Origin: Nitrospirota bacterium
GTDB taxonomy: Bacteria; Nitrospirota; Thermodesulfovibrionia; Thermodesulfovibrionales; Dissulfurispiraceae
Direction: 5' to 3'
Assembly (NCBI GenBank): GCA_015233365.1
Contig: JADFXU010000003.1
Location: 41,307-105,306 of the forward strand
DNA length: 64,000 nucleotides
Shown here: positions 2,116 through 64,000 of the stretch, piece after piece
How the letters are laid out: the number at the start of each line of letters is the position of its first letter
Position numbering within the stretch: the first letter of the stretch is position 1
Translations under genes and position numbers: made by a program
Notes under the pieces: model-generated
Told to the model about the DNA's origin: nothing
Database searches by the model: none
The model's input: only the letters and a program-made list of their open reading frames with translations

Positions 2116-3485
2116 CAGTACACCTCTTCTTCAGCCTCGTATGATACGCCGGAGTAATCTACAAACTTGGTGCAATTAGACAGAAAAGTAAGATTAATCA
2201 CACCGGTGGGCCCGTTTCTCTGCTTGGCGATATCGATTTTAATAACATTCCTGACCGCAGGGTTATCCTTGGCCTGCTCGCCGTCCCTGTAGATAAATAT
2301 GATGACATCGGCATCCTGTTCGATAGCGCCCGATTCCCGTATGTCGGCCAACGTCGGTTTGTTCCCGCTCCGCTGCTCCACAGCCCTGTTGAGCTGACTC
2401 AAGGCGACCACCGGTATTTTCAGTTCTTTGGCAAGGGCCTTCAATGAGCGGGATATTTCCGCTATCTCCTGCTCCCGGCGCTCCAGGTTTCCCCTGCTTC
2501 TCATCAGCTGAAGGTAATCGACTACTACAAGGCTCAGCCCGCGGTGCTCCATCTTGAGCCTCCTTGCCTTGGCCCTTATTTCAAGGACCGTAAGACCCGA
2601 AGAATCATCGATAAAAATGGGGGCTTCGGAAAGCCTGCCTGCCGCGCTTGTGAGTTTCGGCCAATCCTGCCTGTTGATAAACCCTTTCCTCACGTTCGAG
2701 GAATCGACCATGCTTTCTGAGCAGAGCATTCTCATCACTAACTGTTCCTTGGACATTTCCAGGCTGAATACTGCAACGGTTTCCTTCATTTCGATGCCCA
2801 CATGCTGGGCAATATTAAGCGCAAACGCGGTCTTGCCCATGCCGGGTCTCCCCCCGATGATGATCAGTTCGCCCGGCTGAAAGCCCGCGGTCAGCTCATC
2901 GAGGTCTTTGAAACCGGTAGGCACTCCGGTAATCGCCTCTTTTTTGTCATAAAGGTGCTCGATCAATTTAAAGGTGTCTTTAACCACGTCCTTCATGCTG
3001 GCGAAAGAGGTTTTGGTCCTCTTGTCAGCTATATCGAATATGACTTTTTCCGCGTAGTCAACCATCTCGTCCGCCTCAAGATCATCCTCATATACCTTTG
3101 TGTTGATATGCGTAGCAGTCTGTATCAGGGACCTGAGCAGCGACTTCTCACGGACTATTTTCGCATGAAAACGTATGTTTGCAGATGTGGGGATACTGTC
3201 GGCCAGGGTTGACAGGTACGCAATGCCCCCTACGGCATCGAGTTCATCAGTCTTTCTCAGGTGATCGGTGAGCGTAATAATGTCGATGGGATCGTTCTTG
3301 TTGAAAAGATCGAGCATTGAGTTATACAAGCGCCTGTGAGATTCTCTGTAGAAATCCTCGGGTGCCAGCATTTCGAGGGCCTTGGGCAGGGCCTCGTTGT
3401 CAAAGATTATCGCACCGAGAACAGACTGCTCTGCCTCGATGTTCTGGGGAGGCAATTTATCTATGCTTACTCCGGAATCCTTCAC
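2115..3485 (-). CDS. dnaB: replicative DNA helicase
   Basis: 456 aa. PPQNIEAEQSVLGAIIFDNEA N-terminal DnaB motif, Walker A GGRPGMGKTAF, and the RecA-like C-terminal domain (SLEMS, VVDYLQLM). Confidence 0.95.
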   Translation of the reverse strand: MKDSGVSIDKLPPQNIEAEQSVLGAIIFDNEALPKALEMLAPEDFYRESHRRLYNSMLDLFNKNDPIDIITLTDHLRKTDELDAVGGIAYLSTLADSIPTSANIRFHAKIVREKSLLRSLIQTATHINTKVYEDDLEADEMVDYAEKVIFDIADKRTKTSFASMKDVVKDTFKLIEHLYDKKEAITGVPTGFKDLDELTAGFQPGELIIIGGRPGMGKTAFALNIAQHVGIEMKETVAVFSLEMSKEQLVMRMLCSESMVDSSNVRKGFINRQDWPKLTSAAGRLSEAPIFIDDSSGLTVLEIRAKARRLKMEHRGLSLVVVDYLQLMRSRGNLERREQEIAEISRSLKALAKELKIPVVALSQLNRAVEQRSGNKPTLADIRESGAIEQDADVIIFIYRDGEQAKDNPAVRNVIKIDIAKQRNGPTGVINLTFLSNCTKFVDYSGVSYEAEEEVY

Positions 3486-3553
3486 TTTTCACCGTTCATT
3501 GTTCACCATTCACTGTCTGCCGTTAACGGCGAACGGTCAACGGTGAACCTGTC

Positions 3554-3997
3554 TTATTCACTGACCACCTGGACCGTAAACTGGGCGGAGACTTCAGGAT
3601 GGACTTTAACACCCACCGTATAACTTCCCAGTCTCTTGATCGGCTCTTCGAGGACAATCTTTTTCCGGTCGACATCCAATCCTTCCTTCTTGAGCGCTTC
3701 AGCTATATCCATGGCAGTAACAGAGCCGAAAAGCTTCTCTTCCTCCCCGACCTTCGCTTTAATTGTAAGCGTAACAGCCGACAGTTTTGAAGCCACTTCC
3801 TCGGCGCCCGATTTCGCCTTCTTCACCACTTCCTGTATCTTTCTCTTCTCATGTTCCAGGGCCTTGATATTTTTGGGATTAGCTTCCAAAGCCAGCCCTC
3901 TCGGTATCAGAAAATTGCGCGCATATCCATCCTTGACGGTCAGCATTTCTCCTATGTGACCAACGTCTTTAACATCTTCCTTAAGAATAACCTTCAT
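3554..3997 (-). CDS. rplI: 50S ribosomal protein L9
   Basis: 147 aa. [36 protein letters not shown] is the canonical bL9 N-terminus. Confidence 0.95.
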
Positions 3998-4294
3998 ACC
4001 AAGAATCTCCTTTCACTGTCAAATTTGACGGTTTCGTATGGTTTTTTATGTCTTTAATAGTATAAACGATCACAAATGAAAATAGGAAATCAGTAGTTGA
4101 TGCCGGGCGGGAGTCGAGATCGCTGAGCTTTTAAAAAGCACATCTCTGATTCATCACCTGACGTTGATCACGGATTTTATCGATTGACGGTAAAAAGAAA
4201 CGCCGGGGCGGTAAAAAGCAGCGCAGCTAAAACTCCATATAGCCGGGGCAGCAGGTCATTGATATGTCCGCTCTTTTCGTGGTAATCTGCCGTT

Positions 4295-7288
4295 ATGCCG
4301 AAAAAGCCAAGTCCCTTAAAAGCCTTAACTTTGAAAACCAAAATCACCTGCCTGGTGCTCCTGCTGTTTTTGTGCAGCATCTGGGTGCTGACGTTCTTTA
4401 TCTCAAAGCGATTGGAACATGAAATGACAGTCCAGATAGAAGCACAGCAGTTCTCAATCGCATCGTACATCGCTGATAGTATTGAAGGCCAAGTCAGGTT
4501 GCGTATTAATTCGCTGACGGCAATTGCCAACATGATCACCCCGGAACTCCTGGCCAACCCCGGTAAACTAAGGGAGTTTCTGTATGTCAGGCCTTTGTTG
4601 GCAACCCTGTTTCAAACCGGGGTTGAGGTGATTTCCAGGGAAGGCATAGGAATTGCCGATTATCCTGTATTACAGGGGCGAGCAGGATCGTCACGTTCAG
4701 AACTCGAATATTTCAAAGAGGTGGTCGCTACCGGAAAACCGGTGGTGGGAAAGCCTTGGATCGGTCGATTTTCGAACAAACGCGTCATCTCTTTTGCCGT
4801 TCCTATTCTTAACCCATCAGGCAAATTTATCGCTGTGTTGGCAGGTTATACATTGCTGTCCGACCCGGCGCTGCTGGGTTCAATCGGAAACTTGGCATAT
4901 AAAGACTTCTCCGACAGACTCACGTTGGTATCTCCCAAATATCGCATGATTGTTACGGGCACTGATCAGACAAGAATAATGACTCCGACACCGGAACCAG
5001 GGGTGAATCCTCTGCATGACAAATTCATGGCAGGCTTTGAAGGTTCAGGAATCTATGTCAACTCACGAGGAATCAGAATGCTTTCATCCGGTAAACAGAT
5101 CCCGACGCCAGGCTGGTTTGTCCGATTGGGACTGCCGACAGAAATGGCATTTGCTCCGATTCATTCCATGCAGAACTGGATTTATTCCATGGCCTTAGGC
5201 CTATCAATAGTAAGTTCGGTACTTGTATTGCTGCTTATCAGGCAAGCAATGCGTCCACTCTATGTTGCAAACAGACTAATAAAGGATATTACTGAGGAAC
5301 GTTTGCCGCCGCAGGATATACCTGTTACTCAATATGATGAGATCGGTCAGCTGCTCACCAGTTTCAATTTGCATCTTCGGTACCGCAAGCAGGTGGAAGC
5401 TGAAAGGGAACAGTTTTACAAATTCTTCCAAGCTTCTTCCGACCTGATGGTAATCGCCGATCCAAATGGGGCTTTTATGAAGACAAACCCTACCTGCACT
5501 GAAATCCTTGGATACTCCGAAACGGAGCTCGTAGCAAAGCCTTTCATAGAATTCATTCATCCTGAGGACAAGCAGTCAACCCTTGATGAAATGGCAAGAC
5601 AACTGCAGAGGGGCTTTTCGCTGAACTTTGAGAACCGATATATATGCAAGGACGGTTCTGTCAAGTGGCTATCATGGCGTGCAACCTATGTTAAAGATGA
5701 AGGGATCACCTATGCCACAGCGCGTGATATCACCGAAATGAAGCTGACGGAGGAGGCGCTGCATAATAGCGAGGCATTTATAAAGAACATTCTTCAAACA
5801 GTAGATGAGGGATTTATTGTCGTTGACAGGGACTATAGAATACTGTCTGCCAACAGGGCGTATTGCAGTTCCGCAAATTTAAGTGCAGAGCAGGTTCTGG
5901 GACGGACGTGTCACGAAATCTCCCATCATCTGCAAATACCGTGCTTTGAGACCGGGGAAGAGTGTCCGGTCAGGCGGGCCTTCGAAACCGGTGATACTTG
6001 CATCGCTTCACATACTCATTTTCTTCATGGCGGCGACAAACGATATGTAGAGATAAAGGCGTTCCCTGTCAGGGACACAACAGGGAATGTGGTATCGGCC
6101 ATCGAGACTATCAATGATATAACTGAGAGGACACTTCTGGAGGACCAACTCAGGCATGCACAAAAACTGGAGTCTTTAGGAACCCTTGCCGGCGGCGTTG
6201 CTCATGATTTCAACAACATATTGACTGCTATAATCGGATATGGCGGCATGATGGAAATGCGCATGGCGAAGGACGATCGAAACATTCCTTATATCAGAGA
6301 GATAATTGCTGCCGCGGATCGCGCAGCTCACTTAACCCAGGCGCTGCTAATTTTCAGCAGGAAGCAGATTGCCGAGATGAAGCAGGTAGGCATTAATGAG
6401 CTGATAGAAGGTATGAGGAAAATGATTCTGAGACTGATCGGCGAGGACATAGACACGAACATTTCTATTTCGGGCGGTAAACTGGTGGTCATGGGAGATT
6501 ACGGGCAGTTGGAACAGGTCCTGATGAACTTAGCGACGAATGCCAGAGACGCCATGCCTGATGGCGGTTCGTTGAGCATTAGAACTGAAATGCATGAAAT
6601 GGACAGCGAATTTATTGAGATTCACGGGTTTGGAAAACAGGGGAAGTATGCCCTGATTTCGGTCTCCGACACAGGAGAAGGGATGGATGAGACGACCCGC
6701 GAAAGAATCTTTGAGCCTTTTTTCACGACAAAAGGTGTTGGCAAAGGCACGGGGCTTGGGCTTTCAATCGTCTACGGCATAGTCAAGAAACATAATGGCT
6801 ATATCAACTGCTACAGCGAACCCGGCAGTGGAACGACATTCAAGATATATTTGCCGGTTGTCAGGGAGGAATTGGTTGACGCGGAAGAGGCAGTTGACAG
6901 CCCAATAGAGGGCGGAAGCGAGACAATCCTGATAGCGGACGATGATGATAGCGTAAGGGGGTTAACCATAGAGTTGCTTGAAAGGTATGGCTACACGGTC
7001 ATAGAGGCGCGGGACGGCGCTGAGGCAGTAGTCAAATTCCTTGATCATAAAGAAAAGGTTAATCTTGTGCTTCTGGACGTGATAATGCCTAAGAAAAGCG
7101 GGAGAGAGGCATTTGAGGAGATTAGAGACATACGGAGTGATGTAAAGATCCTTTTCATCAGCGGGTATACTGAAGATATCATTCAACGGAAGAGGATCAT
7201 AGAGGATCAGTTACCGTTCCTCCAGAAGCCGGCGAAACCGAAAGAACTACTGGGTAAAATACGAGAGATTTTGGATGCGAAGAAGTAG
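4295..7288 (+). CDS. hybrid sensor histidine kinase (TM-flanked periplasmic Cache-like domain, HAMP, 2 PAS, HisKA, HATPase, C-terminal receiver)
   Basis: 997 aa. Two TM segments flank a ~270-aa extracytoplasmic region. PAS repeats, one carrying a CHEISHH...C...CP Cys/His motif. H-box [11 protein letters not shown], then N/G boxes ([24 protein letters not shown]). The REC domain has ILIADDDD...[11 protein letters not shown]. Confidence 0.85.
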
Positions 7289-58773: not shown

Positions 58774-59610
58774 ATGAAAATCGCAGTCTTAGGGTTAGGC
58801 ATTATCGGAAGCGCCTGGGCGAAAAACCTGATCTCGGACGGCCATGCCGTGCGATGCTGGAACCGGACGCCCAAAGATTTTCCGAACTTTCATGCATCCA
58901 TTCAGGAGGCGGTGGAAGGAGCGGAGGTGATCTTCATCATCGTGGCCGACCCTCCGGCAGTGCAGTCCGTTCTGGATAAGATTCAACCCAGCCTTGGCCG
59001 CGGAGTATTGGTTATTCAATCCAGCACAATTTCCGCCAAATGGACTCGACTCTTCGCCGAACAGGTGCAGCGGACCGGTGCATTGTTTTTGGAAGCACCC
59101 TTTACAGGAAGCAAACTTGCGGCGGAGCAGCGGCAAACCGTTTATTATCTGGGCGGCGAACCGGAAGTCGTCGAAAAGGCGCACCCAATCCTCGAACCTA
59201 TATCCAGTGCCATCCTCCATATCGGGCCGATAGGTTCCGCCAGTTCGCTGAAACTTGCAATGAATCTGAACATTGCCGGCGTCGCCCAAACTTTGTGCGA
59301 GAGCCTGAGTTTGTGCCGGGCAGCGGGAATCCCGGATGAAGTCTATTTCAATGCGCTGGCGCGAAATGCTTCACGTTCAGGAGTTTCTGATCTTAAAGAA
59401 CCCAAGCTGCGTCAGCACGATTACACTCCGCAGTTTTCACTCAAGAATATGGATAAAGACCTTCGTCTGGCACTGGAGACCGCTGCCGATCTCTCAGTGT
59501 CACTCGAACAAACAGGACATCTTAAAAAAATCTACGACCAGGGAATGTCCGCCGGATGGGCGGATGATGACTTCATCGGACTCATGCGCCTCCTTACCAA
59601 CAATACCTAA
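58774..59610 (+). CDS. NAD(P)-dependent oxidoreductase (3-hydroxyisobutyrate/6-phosphogluconate dehydrogenase family)
   Basis: 278 aa. MKIAVLGLGIIGSAWAKNL Rossmann motif and a GSASSLKLAMN catalytic-Lys region. Confidence 0.85.
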   Translation: MKIAVLGLGIIGSAWAKNLISDGHAVRCWNRTPKDFPNFHASIQEAVEGAEVIFIIVADPPAVQSVLDKIQPSLGRGVLVIQSSTISAKWTRLFAEQVQRTGALFLEAPFTGSKLAAEQRQTVYYLGGEPEVVEKAHPILEPISSAILHIGPIGSASSLKLAMNLNIAGVAQTLCESLSLCRAAGIPDEVYFNALARNASRSGVSDLKEPKLRQHDYTPQFSLKNMDKDLRLALETAADLSVSLEQTGHLKKIYDQGMSAGWADDDFIGLMRLLTNNT

Positions 59611-60914
59611 ATTTTTATATTCAGCACCGGCAACCCCAGCCTCTGTCTTTTGTTTTCTCCCCTGAAAAGTTCCGTCGCCCTATGCGGCACATCCCCACGT
59701 TCTCCCTCATGCTGCGCCTGAAGTTTTGTCGGCAAACTTGCTGCATGGTGGACAGTGTACTTCCCGAACTTTTCGGAAAGTTGATCTACCGCGCCATAAA
59801 TCCTGGCCATCTTCTCAATCCTGGCAGGATTATCGAAAAGCGTTTGCTGTATGCCGTCCTCGTGGACAAGTCCGGCAAGAACAACGCCTGTCTGCCGATA
59901 GAGATCGGGTGACCGGTAAATTTGCTTAAATCCCTCTTTCAGGAAACCGAAGAGGTCGGACGGATAGGCGGAAGGCGAGCTTAACTTGATTTCAACGCCG
60001 GTATCCCTGAACTCCTGTGTCCTCAGAAATAAAACAAGTCTCGCAGCCGCGAGCCTGTACCGTCTGGCCTTGATACAGGCATTCTCCAGGTTTTTGGACA
60101 GTTGGGCAAATATAAAAGTCTTATCACATGAAGGCGGGGTGAAAGTTTTTGTTTTGCTTATGGATTGATAACTGCACTTTGATTCAGTGGTAACAGCATA
60201 AACGCTTCTTCCATTGAGTTCATGCCATATCTCCTGATATGGCTTGGAGAGGTGCTTTTTGATGAACTGCTCGTCCTTTCGGGCAAATTGAAGTGCGGTG
60301 ATTATTCCAAATTTTCCCAGGAAAGCCGCGGTATTAGACCCTATTCCCCATACTTTTTCTACCGGCAATTCGGCTATATAAAGATGGATGTCCCTGCCCG
60401 GTATGATGGTCAGTCCGTGGGGCTTCCTATGTTTTGAGCCCGCCTTCGCCAGGACCTTTGAGAGGCTTACGCCGACCGACACGGTAATACCCAATTCCAT
60501 CTCGATAGCTTCCTGCATCTGCTTTGCGATCATTTCGTAAGGGCCGTGAAAGCTTCTCCTGAGGCCCGTAAGATCTACAAATGCTTCGTCTATTGAATAT
60601 TCTTCCACATCAGGAGAAAAGCGCCTGAGTATTTCGAACATCCTGAGAGAAAACAGGCTGTAACTCTCATAATCACTCGGGAGGATAACGGCATCAGGGC
60701 ATACTTTTTTCGCATCAAAGAGCCTCATCCCTCTTTTTACTCCCCGGTTTCTCGCTTCATAACTTGCTGCTGCAACAATGCCACGTTCTTTGCCGGTGAT
60801 TACGGGCTTCCCTTTAAACTCAGGATGTATTGCCTGCTCACAGGACGCAAAAAAAGCGTCTGCGTCCACATGCAGGATAGCCCGGGGCCATGAATGTATT
60901 GTTAAAGGATTCAT
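59607..60914 (-). CDS. Y-family (translesion) DNA polymerase, DinB/UmuC-like
   Basis: 435 aa. ILHVDADAFFASCEQ, SIDEAFVDLTG and GIGSNTA motifs. It lies downstream of lexA on the same strand. Confidence 0.9.
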   Translation of the reverse strand: MNPLTIHSWPRAILHVDADAFFASCEQAIHPEFKGKPVITGKERGIVAAASYEARNRGVKRGMRLFDAKKVCPDAVILPSDYESYSLFSLRMFEILRRFSPDVEEYSIDEAFVDLTGLRRSFHGPYEMIAKQMQEAIEMELGITVSVGVSLSKVLAKAGSKHRKPHGLTIIPGRDIHLYIAELPVEKVWGIGSNTAAFLGKFGIITALQFARKDEQFIKKHLSKPYQEIWHELNGRSVYAVTTESKCSYQSISKTKTFTPPSCDKTFIFAQLSKNLENACIKARRYRLAAARLVLFLRTQEFRDTGVEIKLSSPSAYPSDLFGFLKEGFKQIYRSPDLYRQTGVVLAGLVHEDGIQQTLFDNPARIEKMARIYGAVDQLSEKFGKYTVHHAASLPTKLQAQHEGERGDVPHRATELFRGENKRQRLGLPVLNIKI

Positions 60915-61121: not shown

Positions 61122-61715
61122 CTATTTGTATTTCCTCACTACCGCTGTTACCACTCCTGCTATCTTTAATTCATTTTTCGGTCTTATGGGTTTATACAGG
61201 GGATTTGCCGGTATAAGGCTCACGCTGTCTCCCCTCTTTTTGAGATACTTCATGGTCCACTGGCCGTCGACTTCAGCAATAACTATATCTCCGCTCCTGG
61301 GGACCTGTCCCTTATCGACGATCACCATATCGCCCGGGAGTATGCCGGCCCCGGACATGGAGTCTCCGGACACTTTGAGTAAAAAGGTGGCCTGGGGGTT
61401 TTGTATGAGAAGTGCATCGAGCGACATTGTATCCGCAAGCTCTTCCTCAGCAGGGCTCGGGAACCCTGCCTCCACCGTGCCGAGCACTCTTACCGGCGCT
61501 CCTATAGAGCCGGGTATCAGTCGCCCTTTACGATCTCTTTTTATGACCCCCCTCTGTTCCAGGGTGTTAACAAGTTTAAAAACCGCATTTTTTGAATGCA
61601 GCCCTACCATCACCCCGATTTCAGAGAAACTCGGCATCCTGCCGTTTTTATCCAAAAAAACAGCGATATCTTTGACCCTGCTCCTCATCCTGTCTTCTTT
61701 AACATTCCCCGGCAT
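61122..61715 (-). CDS. lexA: LexA repressor (LexA DNA-binding wHTH + S24 peptidase)
   Basis: LVNTLEQRGVIKRDRKGR wHTH, an AG cleavage-site region (VEAGFPSPA), and the S24 catalytic GDSM...K. I chose Met 61715 as the start because the promoter and operator lie inside the longer track ORF (61769). Confidence 0.9.
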   Translation of the reverse strand: MPGNVKEDRMRSRVKDIAVFLDKNGRMPSFSEIGVMVGLHSKNAVFKLVNTLEQRGVIKRDRKGRLIPGSIGAPVRVLGTVEAGFPSPAEEELADTMSLDALLIQNPQATFLLKVSGDSMSGAGILPGDMVIVDKGQVPRSGDIVIAEVDGQWTMKYLKKRGDSVSLIPANPLYKPIRPKNELKIAGVVTAVVRKYK

Positions 61716-61721
61716 AGTTAA

Positions 61722-61751
61722 ATTATAAAGTGAACGATCGTTCACTGTCAA
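61722..61751 (-). promoter_or_regulatory. lexA promoter with an embedded LexA operator
   Basis: The minus strand reads TTGACA-gtGAACGATCGTTCactt-TATAAT-ttaact-ATG. AGTGAACGATCGTTCACT (61729-61746) is a perfect 18-bp palindrome of the GAAC-N4-GTTC (Cheo box) type. Only 6 nt separate the -10 element from the ATG. Confidence 0.7.
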
Positions 61752-61793
61752 GTTGGCGAATTGGATCATCAGAAATCTATTCGAAACTGATTC

Positions 61794-62003
61794 GTTGCAT
61801 CATTTAAAAATCTATCCAAGAGCAGGCGGGACATTGTGCCGTCGCCTTCGAGCAAGGCGGGATGCCTTCGCACCCCAAAAGTCGAGACTTTTGGGGACCC
61901 CGTTGCGAGATTTGAGCCGAGGCACTGTGTCCTGACTGCTCGACACCACTACATCGAACGCTAATAACCAAATATTCTCGAATAGATTTTTACGTGATGC
62001 AAC
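61794..62003. repeat. foldback element E4: 22-bp arms (2 mismatches) around a 166-bp core
   Basis: GTTGCATCATTTAAAAATCTAT (61794-61815) pairs with ATAGATTTTTACGTGATGCAAC (61982-62003). An extra AAATCTATTCGA (61773-61784) is complementary to 61978-61989. The core holds a perfect 9-bp hairpin, CCCCAAAAG-tcgaga-CTTTTGGGG. Confidence 0.85.
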
Positions 62004-62045
62004 ACGGCTGGAAGGTCAACTATCGGTACCTTGCGGACGACCTGA

Positions 62046-62342
62046 TCAACAACAACTGTTTTTTTTATCGCCACCGCTGCAGTCGCATGAGGGTTCGCCG
62101 CCGGAGATCATACTTTTTATAAGTGCCGCGGCGCAGCCTACCCCTTTGTCTACAGTCAATGCGCCAAAGGGGCAATTGTTTACGCAAGCCCCGCATTCCA
62201 TACACCTGTCTCTGTCCTGAATTACGGCCTTCTTATTACTCAAGGCAAGGACTTCGTGAGGACAAACCTCCAGGCACATCCCGCATCCGGTACAGCTTTC
62301 GGGAAATAATTCAAGACTCGCCGTATTCGACAGATATTTCAT
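62046..62342 (-). CDS. hgcB: mercury methylation ferredoxin HgcB
   Basis: 98 aa from Met 62342 (ATGA overlap with the hgcA stop). Two CX2CX2CX3CP clusters (CTGCGMCLEVCP, CMECGACVNNCP), including the HgcB-typical CMECGA. An extra Cys in GVGCAAAL and a C-terminal ...KKNSCC vicinal Cys pair. Confidence 0.85.
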   Translation of the reverse strand: MKYLSNTASLELFPESCTGCGMCLEVCPHEVLALSNKKAVIQDRDRCMECGACVNNCPFGALTVDKGVGCAAALIKSMISGGEPSCDCSGGDKKNSCC

Positions 62343-63475
62343 AATATACCCCACTGCGTCAGCTTGAACATTGTCAACAAAATAAATGAGACAACAGAAA
62401 ACAGGAGATAGGCGGGAATGGCAATTCTCAGCTCTTTTTTCACTCCCGACATCCCCGTAAACGTAGTTGAGCCCGTGAATTGCAGGGCAATGTATGAACT
62501 TGCCATGGGGAAAAACAGGTACGTGAAAATGAGGAGCAAGGTATTGTACTGCCCCGGAAATAGAATAAATCTTGTTGACAGGGAAATTGCAAGCAGTCCT
62601 GTTATCCATCCCTTGATCGCAAAAGACCTGAATGGGACAAACGGCAGAAGCGCAGGGGTCAACAGCGCACCGGCAAGCACCGATACGAGACCTAAAAGCA
62701 GAAAGGGTAATCCCCCGGCGAATGCATCTCTGAAGAGAATGCCGGAAGGCGCAAGCCCGAAAACAACCAGGATAAATCCCGCATATAACGGGAACTTTTT
62801 CATTGCGGGATTGATCTCCATCGGTGTGAGGACCAATCTGTCGGAGAGGGGAAATTTCACCCTCCGCATTTCCCTTGTTGCTTCATATCCGGCCTTTATG
62901 TAAGCAGGGATATCTTTTGCATGGACAGGCCCGTACAAAACATCAAAACCGGCAGACCGTTTTACTCTGAACGCACTGACACCGGGCGCTCCAAGCTGCG
63001 GGACGATAACACGTCTGTGGTCCACTACTTTGTTCAACTGTGCGACGGAAATCCGTTTTGCCAGTTCGGCGGTGCCAAAGGTGCCCTTTCCCGCAGCACA
63101 CCAGACATTGATACCTTTGGTATCCAGAACAAGAATCCATGCATTAAGGTCTTTAAGTTCACGTCTCAGCATGTCAAAGCTGTACTTGTAGTTGGCGCTT
63201 ACAAGGACATCCGAGTTATTGTCGGGATTACCCGCGGCATATAGACCTGGAACAACTCTATAATCGTCCCTGTATGCAGTGGTCCTGCATTTGAAATGTT
63301 CCCAGTAATCGGTCTTTGAAAGAGTGCTTGAGATTCTGGGGACCGGCCCTACCGGCGTCATCACAGTACCGATCACCCATTCCAGGGCAGGATGAAGGGC
63401 AGGACCGCCGCATTCGCAACAGGATACCGCTTCCTTCTTCCAGTCCAATTCGACCTTTAATTTCAGTTCAGGCAT
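62339..63475 (-). CDS. hgcA: mercury methylation corrinoid protein HgcA
   Basis: 378 aa. The cap-helix signature GINVWCAAGKGTFGT (N-V-W-C-A-A-G-K) sits in a CdhD-like corrinoid-binding domain. It is followed by a C-terminal domain with about 5 TM helices. Confidence 0.9.
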   Translation of the reverse strand: MPELKLKVELDWKKEAVSCCECGGPALHPALEWVIGTVMTPVGPVPRISSTLSKTDYWEHFKCRTTAYRDDYRVVPGLYAAGNPDNNSDVLVSANYKYSFDMLRRELKDLNAWILVLDTKGINVWCAAGKGTFGTAELAKRISVAQLNKVVDHRRVIVPQLGAPGVSAFRVKRSAGFDVLYGPVHAKDIPAYIKAGYEATREMRRVKFPLSDRLVLTPMEINPAMKKFPLYAGFILVVFGLAPSGILFRDAFAGGLPFLLLGLVSVLAGALLTPALLPFVPFRSFAIKGWITGLLAISLSTRFILFPGQYNTLLLIFTYLFFPMASSYIALQFTGSTTFTGMSGVKKELRIAIPAYLLFSVVSFILLTMFKLTQWGIL

Positions 63476-63487
63476 ATTTTGAATTTC

Positions 63488-63787
63488 TCACAATATCTCT
63501 TTTAGTATCGGGCCGAGTTGTACTTTCACCATCTCAACCATGTCTTCAACCTTGATCAAAGTTATACAACACACTTCTCCGTTCTTCTCCCAACTTGTGA
63601 CCGCAAGTTTATCTCCGGCCTTAATCCCGGCTTTTTCCCGCAGCTCCTTGGGCAATACCATTTGCCCCCGCTCATCCACGCTTATAACGGACTCGACTTT
63701 GCAGACAGCATTCGTCTTATTCGTTAACGCACTGCGGGACCGGGTTTCCTGCTTCTTCTTCACTGGATACTCCTTCACGGTATTCAT
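63488..63787 (-). CDS. AbrB/MazE/SpoVT-family DNA-binding protein, apparently co-transcribed with hgcAB
   Basis: 99 aa from Met 63787. VDERGQMVLPKELREKAGIKAGDKLAV is a SpoVT-AbrB swapped-hairpin motif. The stop lies 12 nt before the hgcA ATG. Confidence 0.7.
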   Translation of the reverse strand: MNTVKEYPVKKKQETRSRSALTNKTNAVCKVESVISVDERGQMVLPKELREKAGIKAGDKLAVTSWEKNGEVCCITLIKVEDMVEMVKVQLGPILKEIL

Positions 63788-63790
63788 ACC

Positions 63791-63835
63791 AATCAGATTA
63801 ATCTGATTATACTGATTAGTAAATATTTGTGTCAA
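63791..63835 (-). promoter_or_regulatory. promoter plus palindromic operator candidate of the abrB-like/hgcAB operon
   Basis: The minus strand reads TTGACA-N18-TATAAT (63835-63830 and 63811-63806). A perfect 18-bp palindrome, AATCAGATTAATCTGATT (63791-63808), overlaps the end of the -10 element and covers the predicted TSS, ending 3 nt before the ATG. A third AATCAG half-site lies at about 63812-63818. Confidence 0.5.
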
Positions 63836-64000
63836 TACCAGGCATGTTTGGGAGGTGATCCAGAGCAAAAACAAACTGAGACACTACCGATGTTTGAGTC
63901 TGCAATAACAGCGAGTCAGGGCCGGTTCTTTACATTAACTCAGATCATGATATGATGAATATAAGACGAATATTATCAGAAGACAACAATAGCTTAAATA

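Follow-up and report, generated by a model that had tools for sequence, protein, structure and literature searches.

How the expression of the mercury methylation genes hgcAB is controlled, and what purpose HgcAB serves, are open questions in mercury biogeochemistry, and the abundance of hgcAB genes or transcripts is a poor predictor of methylmercury production. In Pseudodesulfovibrio mercurii ND132, the ArsR-type regulator of hgcAB is arsenic-responsive (Gionfriddo et al., bioRxiv 10.1101/2022.10.17.512643). Zhang et al. 2023 (PMC10349881) described another gene immediately ahead of hgcA as “TA-associated” (TA, toxin-antitoxin) and as prlF/abrB/mazE-like; it has this position in 14 of 35 hgcAB contigs and in 8 of 31 confirmed methylators, of which 6 are archaea. 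A 2026 paper sums up the field as “ArsR in bacteria, toxin-antitoxin in archaea.” Here, we describe an operon of hgcA, hgcB and a small AbrB-type gene, hgcC, at the right end of a 64,000-nucleotide stretch of a Nitrospirota genome (contig JADFXU010000003.1, positions 41,307 to 105,306; hereafter, the window), together with the protein family to which HgcC belongs.

The three genes are co-oriented on the minus strand in the order hgcC (63488-63763), hgcA (62339-63475) and hgcB (62046-62342). The protein encoded by the first gene matches model NF040962, “HgcAB-associated protein HgcC,” with 118.9 bits (cut-off 70), and its domain matches TIGR01439 with 39 bits (cut-off 28.3) and PF04014 with 34 bits (cut-off 24.7), all above cut-off, in agreement with the original prediction of an AbrB/SpoVT-fold gene 12 nt ahead of hgcA. 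That prediction held a gene of this type to be less usual beside hgcAB; it has, however, been both catalogued (NF040962) and published (PMC10349881), the “TA gene” of Zhang et al. being of the same family and in the same position as hgcC of the window. The window locus is a further member of the known hgcC-hgcA-hgcB arrangement, and its interest lies at the level of the family, in a putative regulator shared by operons of hgcAB and of the arsenite methyltransferase gene arsM that has a defined operator and conserved cysteines, a combination that we did not find in the searchable literature.

We consider it probable that this is an autorepressed hgcCAB operon, in which HgcC binds an array of TCWG boxes and a metal or metalloid releases the repression. 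A single sigma-70-type promoter (63835-63806) is predicted to give one hgcC-hgcA-hgcB transcript, from which HgcA, the corrinoid methyl carrier (Cys126), and HgcB, the ferredoxin, would be made as the established Hg(II)-methylating pair. HgcC, most likely as an oligomer, would occupy three TCWG boxes (63815-63794) that overlap the -10 hexamer and the start site, thereby repressing the operon with hgcC included. Derepression would most likely be signaled by a metal or metalloid that binds thiols, namely As(III) and perhaps Hg(II). Such a circuit would parallel that of the arsenic-responsive ArsR-type regulator of ND132, on an unrelated fold.

The promoter ahead of hgcC is a 12/12 match to TTGACA-18-TATAAT (63835-63806, minus strand), with the -35 hexamer TTGACA at 63830-63835 and the -10 hexamer TATAAT at 63806-63811. 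The predicted HgcC operator, TCAGTATAATCAGATTAATCTG (63794-63815, minus strand), consists of three TCWG boxes with a 9-bp period, the last base of the -10 hexamer being the first base of box 2, and it is overlapped by a perfect 18-nt palindrome, AATCAGATTAATCTGATT (63791-63808). Repression is proposed because the boxes overlap the -10 hexamer and the start site, the latter being expected near 63799. Within the 64-kb window, the pattern TCWG-N5-TCWG-N5-TCWG has a single match, with 0.04 expected.

Clustering of the HgcC relatives at 90% identity gives 3,742 clusters; at 50% identity, there are 306 representatives (E ≤1e-10). By scanning GTDB with one genome per species, we identified at least 583 loci that encode an HgcC relative, and the best 80 were fetched. 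The gene directly downstream on the same strand is arsM in 43 of these 80 and hgcA, nearly always followed by hgcB, in 34; two of the remaining three loci lie at contig ends, and the third has arsM divergently upstream. Compared with the account of Zhang et al., the link to arsM is at least as frequent as that to hgcAB among the sampled loci. The arsM products (~275 aa) score 341-351 bits on the arsenite methyltransferase model NF008823 (cut-off 263). Four arsM-linked members of the family (L052, L039, L036 and L033) score 112-133 bits on NF040962, a range that includes the window protein; the name “HgcAB-associated protein HgcC” goes to many arsM-adjacent proteins, and the model does not discriminate genomic context. 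The window itself contains no arsM and no second hgcC, and we found no report in the searchable literature that links arsM with this AbrB-type gene.

The hosts of the two kinds of loci are diverse. The hgcAB-linked genes come from Nitrospirota, Thermodesulfobacteriota and other deltaproteobacteria, one spirochaete and one Methanosarcinales archaeon, and the arsM-linked genes from Dehalococcoidia and other Chloroflexi, Thermoplasmata, Methanoperedens, Methanocellales, Bathyarchaeota, Aerophobetes, Aminicenantia, Cloacimonadota, Actinomycetota and Syntrophia. Among culturable methylators, Methanocella paludicola and Methanomassiliicoccus luminyensis carry hgcC. A neighbor-joining tree of the 70-residue core, which is short and poorly resolved, interleaves the two groups: the hgcAB-linked proteins occupy no fewer than five separate positions among the arsM-linked ones, and in 70 of 78 cases a protein and its nearest neighbor share the same kind of partner gene. 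In one locus (L036, a Syntrophobacter metagenome-assembled genome (MAG), 2809-4282), the HgcC-family gene is divergent from arsM and is itself followed by a different S-adenosylmethionine-dependent methyltransferase gene with best matches, below cut-offs, to the UbiE/MenG and DVU_1556 families.

The predicted operator recurs across the family. Upstream of nearly all homologous genes, in AT-rich sequence, lie two to five TCWG(A) boxes with an exact 9-bp period: in front of 77 of these genes, the distance between successive TCWG cores is 9 bp in 103 cases, and counting all pairs in front of the same 77 genes gives spacings of 18, 27 and 36 bp 84, 36 and 23 times, respectively. At least two TCWGA sequences within 140 nt are found in 82% of the loci compared with 2.6% of control windows, and uninterrupted chains of at least three TCWG units occur in 34 of 78 upstream regions compared with 4 in ~1 Mb of control DNA. 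A second look at these control sequences gave three chains of at least three units, all of them GC-rich and unlike the operator, and the TCWG chains found elsewhere in the loci, few and GC-rich, look like chance occurrences and not like sites of a wider regulon. Box counts are equal for hgcAB-linked and arsM-linked loci, and the loci with a large gap between hgcC and its target gene contain no second TCWG array within the gap. Most bacterial loci have TTGAC upstream of the first box, at a distance of ~20 nt (Nitrospirota) to ~30 nt, with the array covering the -10 box and start site, whereas in archaea, the boxes bracket a TATA-like “tttaaata.” Because sequence and period are kept while the type of promoter changes, the array appears to belong with HgcC and not with the polymerase. 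A deltaproteobacterial MAG (L011, ~3790-3990) carries two tandem copies of its promoter-plus-operator block, cttgacacccatc.tataaatcagtataatcagaatattctgattaggagccaccct, ahead of hgcC.

The fold of HgcC is consistent with a role in DNA binding. The AlphaFold2 model, a monomer built with a 25-sequence alignment, has a mean predicted local distance difference test (pLDDT) score of 78.6, with a confident core (residues 20-71), a C-terminal helix (72-90) and a disordered stretch of 16 residues at the N-terminus. The top Foldseek matches of this monomer model are SpoVT, AbrB, Sso7c4, C68 and Abh, with MazE lower; for SpoVT, AbrB and Sso7c4, the probability is ~1 but the E-values are near 0.03, and for C68, the probability is likewise ~1. 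A sequence profile search of the PDB matches HgcC residues 23-70 to Sso7c4, SpoVT and AbrB, and the segment D30-E-R-G-Q-M-V-L-P-K-x-L-R42 is almost invariant, also among the 50%-identity representatives.

These comparisons bear on the published reading for archaeal methylators, in which HgcC would be a type II antitoxin (PrlF/MazE-like) and hgcAB merely co-regulated with it. The annotation of the family fits that reading, given that the best Pfam match is PF04014 (MazE_antitoxin), that KEGG and COG label the relatives PrlF, and that JGI names many of them “antitoxin PrlF,” but the structure and profile matches favor AbrB, SpoVT and Sso7c4 over MazE, and the C-terminus is a conserved helix, not a variable toxin-binding tail. 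Moreover, an open reading frame (ORF) census within 4 kb, covering 81 loci, revealed no recurrent neighbor beyond hgcA, hgcB and arsM, and no toxin family; the next gene in the window is hgcA. We therefore regard an antitoxin role as very improbable, and a place for HgcC as a toxin-antitoxin component was rejected, there being no toxin partner in the census. Zhang et al. read the gene as an archaeal toxin-antitoxin regulator, whereas the copy in the window is bacterial (Nitrospirota) and has no toxin present. On this comparison, the AbrB-type gene is common in bacterial methylators too and is not a component of a toxin-antitoxin system.

The cysteines of HgcC suggest what the protein might sense. 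Among the HgcC proteins of the loci, in both contexts, Cys66 is present in 81 of 81 and Cys65 in 77 of 81; at least one cysteine lies N-terminal to the core in 79 of 80, and a CC pair is found there in 70 of 80. Across 150 representatives of the 50%-identity clusters, the counts are 108 of 141 for Cys21, 113 of 146 for Cys65 and 129 of 146 for Cys66. The Cys65-Cys66 pair sits in the last strand of the AbrB domain, and Sso7c4 has no cysteine at the aligned positions. The gene neighborhood of the closest GTDB relative, a Nitrospirota MAG (L001), is hgcC-hgcA-hgcB followed on the same strand by an arsC-like gene, that is, a low-molecular-weight phosphatase gene, and acr3 (5749-7258; acr3 product, TIGR00832, 466 bits, cut-off 283). 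Because the family is tied to arsM and hgcAB, because L001 carries the arsC-like gene and acr3, and because the cysteines are conserved, As(III) or Hg(II) is proposed as the signal. An arsC-like gene is also present in a further locus, L004, and in the window, the positions of the L001 arsC-like gene and acr3 are occupied by a structured spacer and lexA.

At the level of the family, we tentatively suggest, as a possibility that falls short of being likely, that the HgcC proteins are previously unrecognized thiol-based sensors of As(III)/Hg(II), with an AbrB swapped-hairpin fold and, as binding site at the core promoter, a TCWGA array of 9-bp period, and that in Bacteria and Archaea they have passed back and forth between operons of arsM and of hgcAB on repeated occasions.

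The same cysteines could serve a different function. HgcC could be mainly a thiol-based metal(loid) chaperone or accessory protein, for which ArsD is the model, handing Hg(II) or As(III) to HgcAB or ArsM, with DNA binding being secondary. The conserved CC pair and N-terminal cysteine would suit such a protein, as would its unusually high conservation across bacteria and archaea and the fact that it always accompanies one of two enzymes whose substrates bind thiols. However, both domains conserve an operator of exact period at the core promoter of the gene itself, which would be difficult to account for if the protein did not bind DNA sequence-specifically, and the fold and the D-E-R-G-Q-M-V-L-P-K-x-L-R segment match DNA-binding AbrB-type proteins. 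The chaperone and repressor roles can also coexist, and we find it quite unlikely that the former is the main one. It is somewhat less improbable, although still not what we expect, that HgcC is an autoregulator that senses no metal and acts as a constitutive negative-feedback brake or as a redox (thiol-disulfide) switch for oxygen or oxidants. The evidence from operator and fold would be the same as for a metal-responsive repressor, all hosts are anaerobes, and the cysteines could form disulfides instead of binding metal. Against this stand the ties of the family to two metal(loid) methylation systems, together with the arsC-like gene and acr3 of L001, the lack of any tie to general anaerobic or redox genes, and the arsenic responsiveness of the ArsR-type hgcAB regulator.

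Several points weigh against metal-controlled autorepression by HgcC, the reading that we prefer. We infer the DNA binding of HgcC, the direction of its effect as repression and the nature of its ligand, and control by As(III) or Hg(II) is likewise put forward as what the neighborhoods and cysteines suggest. With 9 bp, the period falls short of one helical turn, an unusual spacing for a protein arranged along a single face of the DNA. Nor are the cysteines universal: ~12-23% of the distant representatives lack one of them, and two confirmed methylators in the supplement of Zhang et al. have Tyr or Leu at position 21, with a CC pair further upstream. The AlphaFold2 model is that of a monomer. 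The 80 loci are those closest to the window protein and not a random sample. Finally, identities of 55-82% across phyla and domains are unusually high for a small repressor, and conservation this high points to a possible additional role of HgcC in contacting the enzymes.

The assignment of the two enzyme genes is firm by profile scores. HgcA (378 aa) matches the NCBIfam equivalog NF040863 with 395.9 bits (cut-off 275), and its cap-helix motif, NVWCAAGK, spans residues 123-130, with the codon of Cys126 at 63098-63100. A Kyte-Doolittle scan with a 19-residue window, which is not a dedicated predictor of membrane segments, shows four strong hydrophobic segments in the C-terminal half of this corrinoid protein (residues 230-248, 259-277, 313-331 and 351-369), and a fifth, weaker segment (~288-306) is discernible by eye only. 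HgcB (98 aa) matches NF040864 with 124 bits (cut-off 99) and is a ferredoxin with two [4Fe-4S] clusters predicted from CX2CX2CX3CP motifs at residues 17 and 47, the second being CMECGACVNNCP, in addition to Cys70 and a C-terminal CC at residues 97-98. In the closest Nitrospirota relatives (L001, L002 and L006-L010), the N-terminus of HgcA is kept from residue 1. An N-terminal extension of HgcA that precedes the region covered by the model contains a CCxC cluster (Cys19, Cys20 and Cys22; 63407-63421).

Both proteins thus pass the curated equivalog cut-offs, with motifs and membrane domain present, which bears out the identification of HgcA and HgcB made in the original prediction. The concern raised there, that the hgcA-like gene might belong to a non-methylating paralogue, either related to the corrinoid iron-sulfur protein (CFeSP) or of the fused HgcAB-like type, so that the organism would be no methylator, was addressed by profile scores. 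Pfam does see CdhD alone in HgcA, a weak general resemblance, and a sequence search for a solved HgcA structure returned none, with only CFeSP gamma subunits matching as the nearest solved structures (E ~1e-8). However, HgcA falls below the cut-off of both the HgcAB-like fusion paralogue model (193.5 bits, cut-off 285) and the acetyl-CoA decarbonylase/synthase (ACDS) gamma model (65 bits, cut-off 306), the cap-helix motif is intact with its Cys, and the membrane domain and an adjoining true HgcB are present, making a non-methylating paralogue a most improbable explanation. Judged by these models, hgcAB of the window is a genuine mercury-methylation gene pair, and Hg(II) methylation is predicted.

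The operon geometry, like the gene identities and the promoter consensus, is directly observed. The TGA of hgcC (63488-63490) is followed by a 12-nt gap and the ATG of hgcA at 63475, and the TGA of hgcA overlaps the ATG of hgcB in an ATGA (62342-62339). No promoter-like site was found on the minus strand from 63806 to 61751, and no terminator-like site between hgcC, hgcA and hgcB; four terminator-like matches lie within hgcA (62703-62793) and have weak stems of 5-6 pairs. With one strong promoter ahead of the three genes, the three-gene operon originally proposed is supported. Its upper limit had been put at 63874, where the longest ORF of hgcC indeed begins with a TTG, but a start further downstream is likelier. 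Besides this TTG, the candidates are the ATG at 63787, which is the start in the NCBI annotation and gives 99 aa, and the GTG at 63763. The last is more likely to be the true start, because a Shine-Dalgarno sequence, GAAGGAG (63770-63776, minus strand, read from the sequence), lies 6 nt ahead of it, and because the resulting 91 aa are the most frequent length among 120 listed HgcC homologues. So defined, the protein comprises the AbrB/SpoVT fold, with Cys21 and the Cys65-Cys66 pair, and the C-terminal helix.

Downstream of hgcB, the locus adjoins lexA and a Y-family polymerase gene (59607-60914, minus strand), both on the same strand, as originally noted. The lexA product matches TIGR00498 with 131.8 bits (cut-off 110.95) and also passes a UmuD-type subfamily model (121 bits, cut-off 110), whereas the polymerase is below every DNA polymerase IV and UmuC cut-off, its best match being DNA polymerase IV with 252 bits (cut-off 381); together, the two genes may form a lexA/umuD-like plus umuC-like cassette. 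A second 12/12 sigma-70 promoter, TTGACA-18-TATAAT (61722-61751, minus strand), lies ahead of lexA and contains between its hexamers a palindrome, AGTGAACGATCGTTCACT (61746-61729), with a GAAC-N4-GTTC SOS box, which we take to be of the Gram-positive “Cheo” type. Since the longest lexA ORF (61122-61769) includes this promoter, lexA probably has its true start further along, downstream of 61722.

An SOS link as a functional association was rejected: all 80 related loci lack lexA, and just one of them, which is arsM-linked, has a Y-family polymerase gene, ~3.4 kb downstream of hgcC. The adjacency of hgcAB and lexA recurs in one published contig only, a rice-paddy contig with the order prlF-like, hgcA, hgcB, lexA (Zhang et al. 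2023, supplement, PMC10349881), which is probably from the same lineage, and the SOS neighborhood looks incidental.

As RNA, the 276-nt spacer between hgcB and lexA (61770-62045, minus strand) is unusually stable, with a minimum free energy of -101.4 kcal/mol (z = -4.59) that 0 of 200 shuffled sequences reached. Within it lie a perfect hairpin, CCCCAAAAGTCTCGACTTTTGGGG (61873-61896), with no T-run behind it, and a 28-nt inverted repeat (61794-61821 versus 61976-62003, 86%). The spacer may be a structured RNA, a terminator that lacks a U-tract, or a small mobile insert. Rfam identified only two tRNAs in the window, with no match in or near the locus or in this spacer. The GC content is 0.48-0.50 across the locus and mostly 0.45-0.51 in the flanks, with one window at 0.545; with the locus this close to its flanks, GC content gives no signal of horizontal transfer.

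If the family-level proposal is true, mercury methylation in a large share of methylators would be triggered by the signal that also triggers arsenic methylation, and HgcAB would natively have a function connected with arsenic or metalloid stress. How mercury methylation is regulated becomes directly testable, with a protein of ~90 aa, a 22-bp site and three cysteines as the objects of study, and the question is opened whether arsenic or mercury itself induces mercury methylation in Nitrospirota, Thermodesulfobacteriota and methanogens.

The locus can also be compared with other known systems. In ND132, as here, hgcA is immediately preceded by a small regulator gene in the same orientation (in ND132, it is also co-transcribed), HgcA and HgcB have the same motifs, and both regulator families are linked to arsenic. 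The ND132 regulator, however, is a winged helix-turn-helix protein of the ArsR/SmtB type, whereas HgcC is of the swapped-hairpin AbrB/SpoVT type, has no match to PF01022 in Pfam or NCBIfam scans, and, unlike the ND132 regulator, has no recognizable S-adenosyl-homocysteine ligand domain.

With AbrB, the SpoVT N-domain and Sso7c4, HgcC agrees in fold and profile over residues 23-70, and differs in having a short C-terminal helix in place of the C-domains of AbrB and SpoVT, a well-defined periodic predicted operator, and conserved cysteines, which are absent at the aligned positions of Sso7c4. To our knowledge, AbrB has no clear consensus binding site. MraZ, a protein with an AbrB-like fold encoded first in its operon, binds direct repeats ~10 bp apart at its own promoter. 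HgcC resembles it as a small AbrB-superfamily protein that is encoded first in an operon and has evenly spaced repeats at its own promoter, but scores only 20.8 bits on NF001476 (cut-off 162), and its boxes differ in sequence, have a 9-bp period and are short palindromes (TCWGA), not direct repeats. The As(III) sites of ArsR-type proteins consist of three cysteines, and that of ArsD of a vicinal Cys pair plus a third Cys (Cys12-Cys13-Cys18). HgcC resembles these proteins in being small, in combining a vicinal Cys pair with a further Cys and in heading an arsenic-related operon, on a fold unrelated to theirs.

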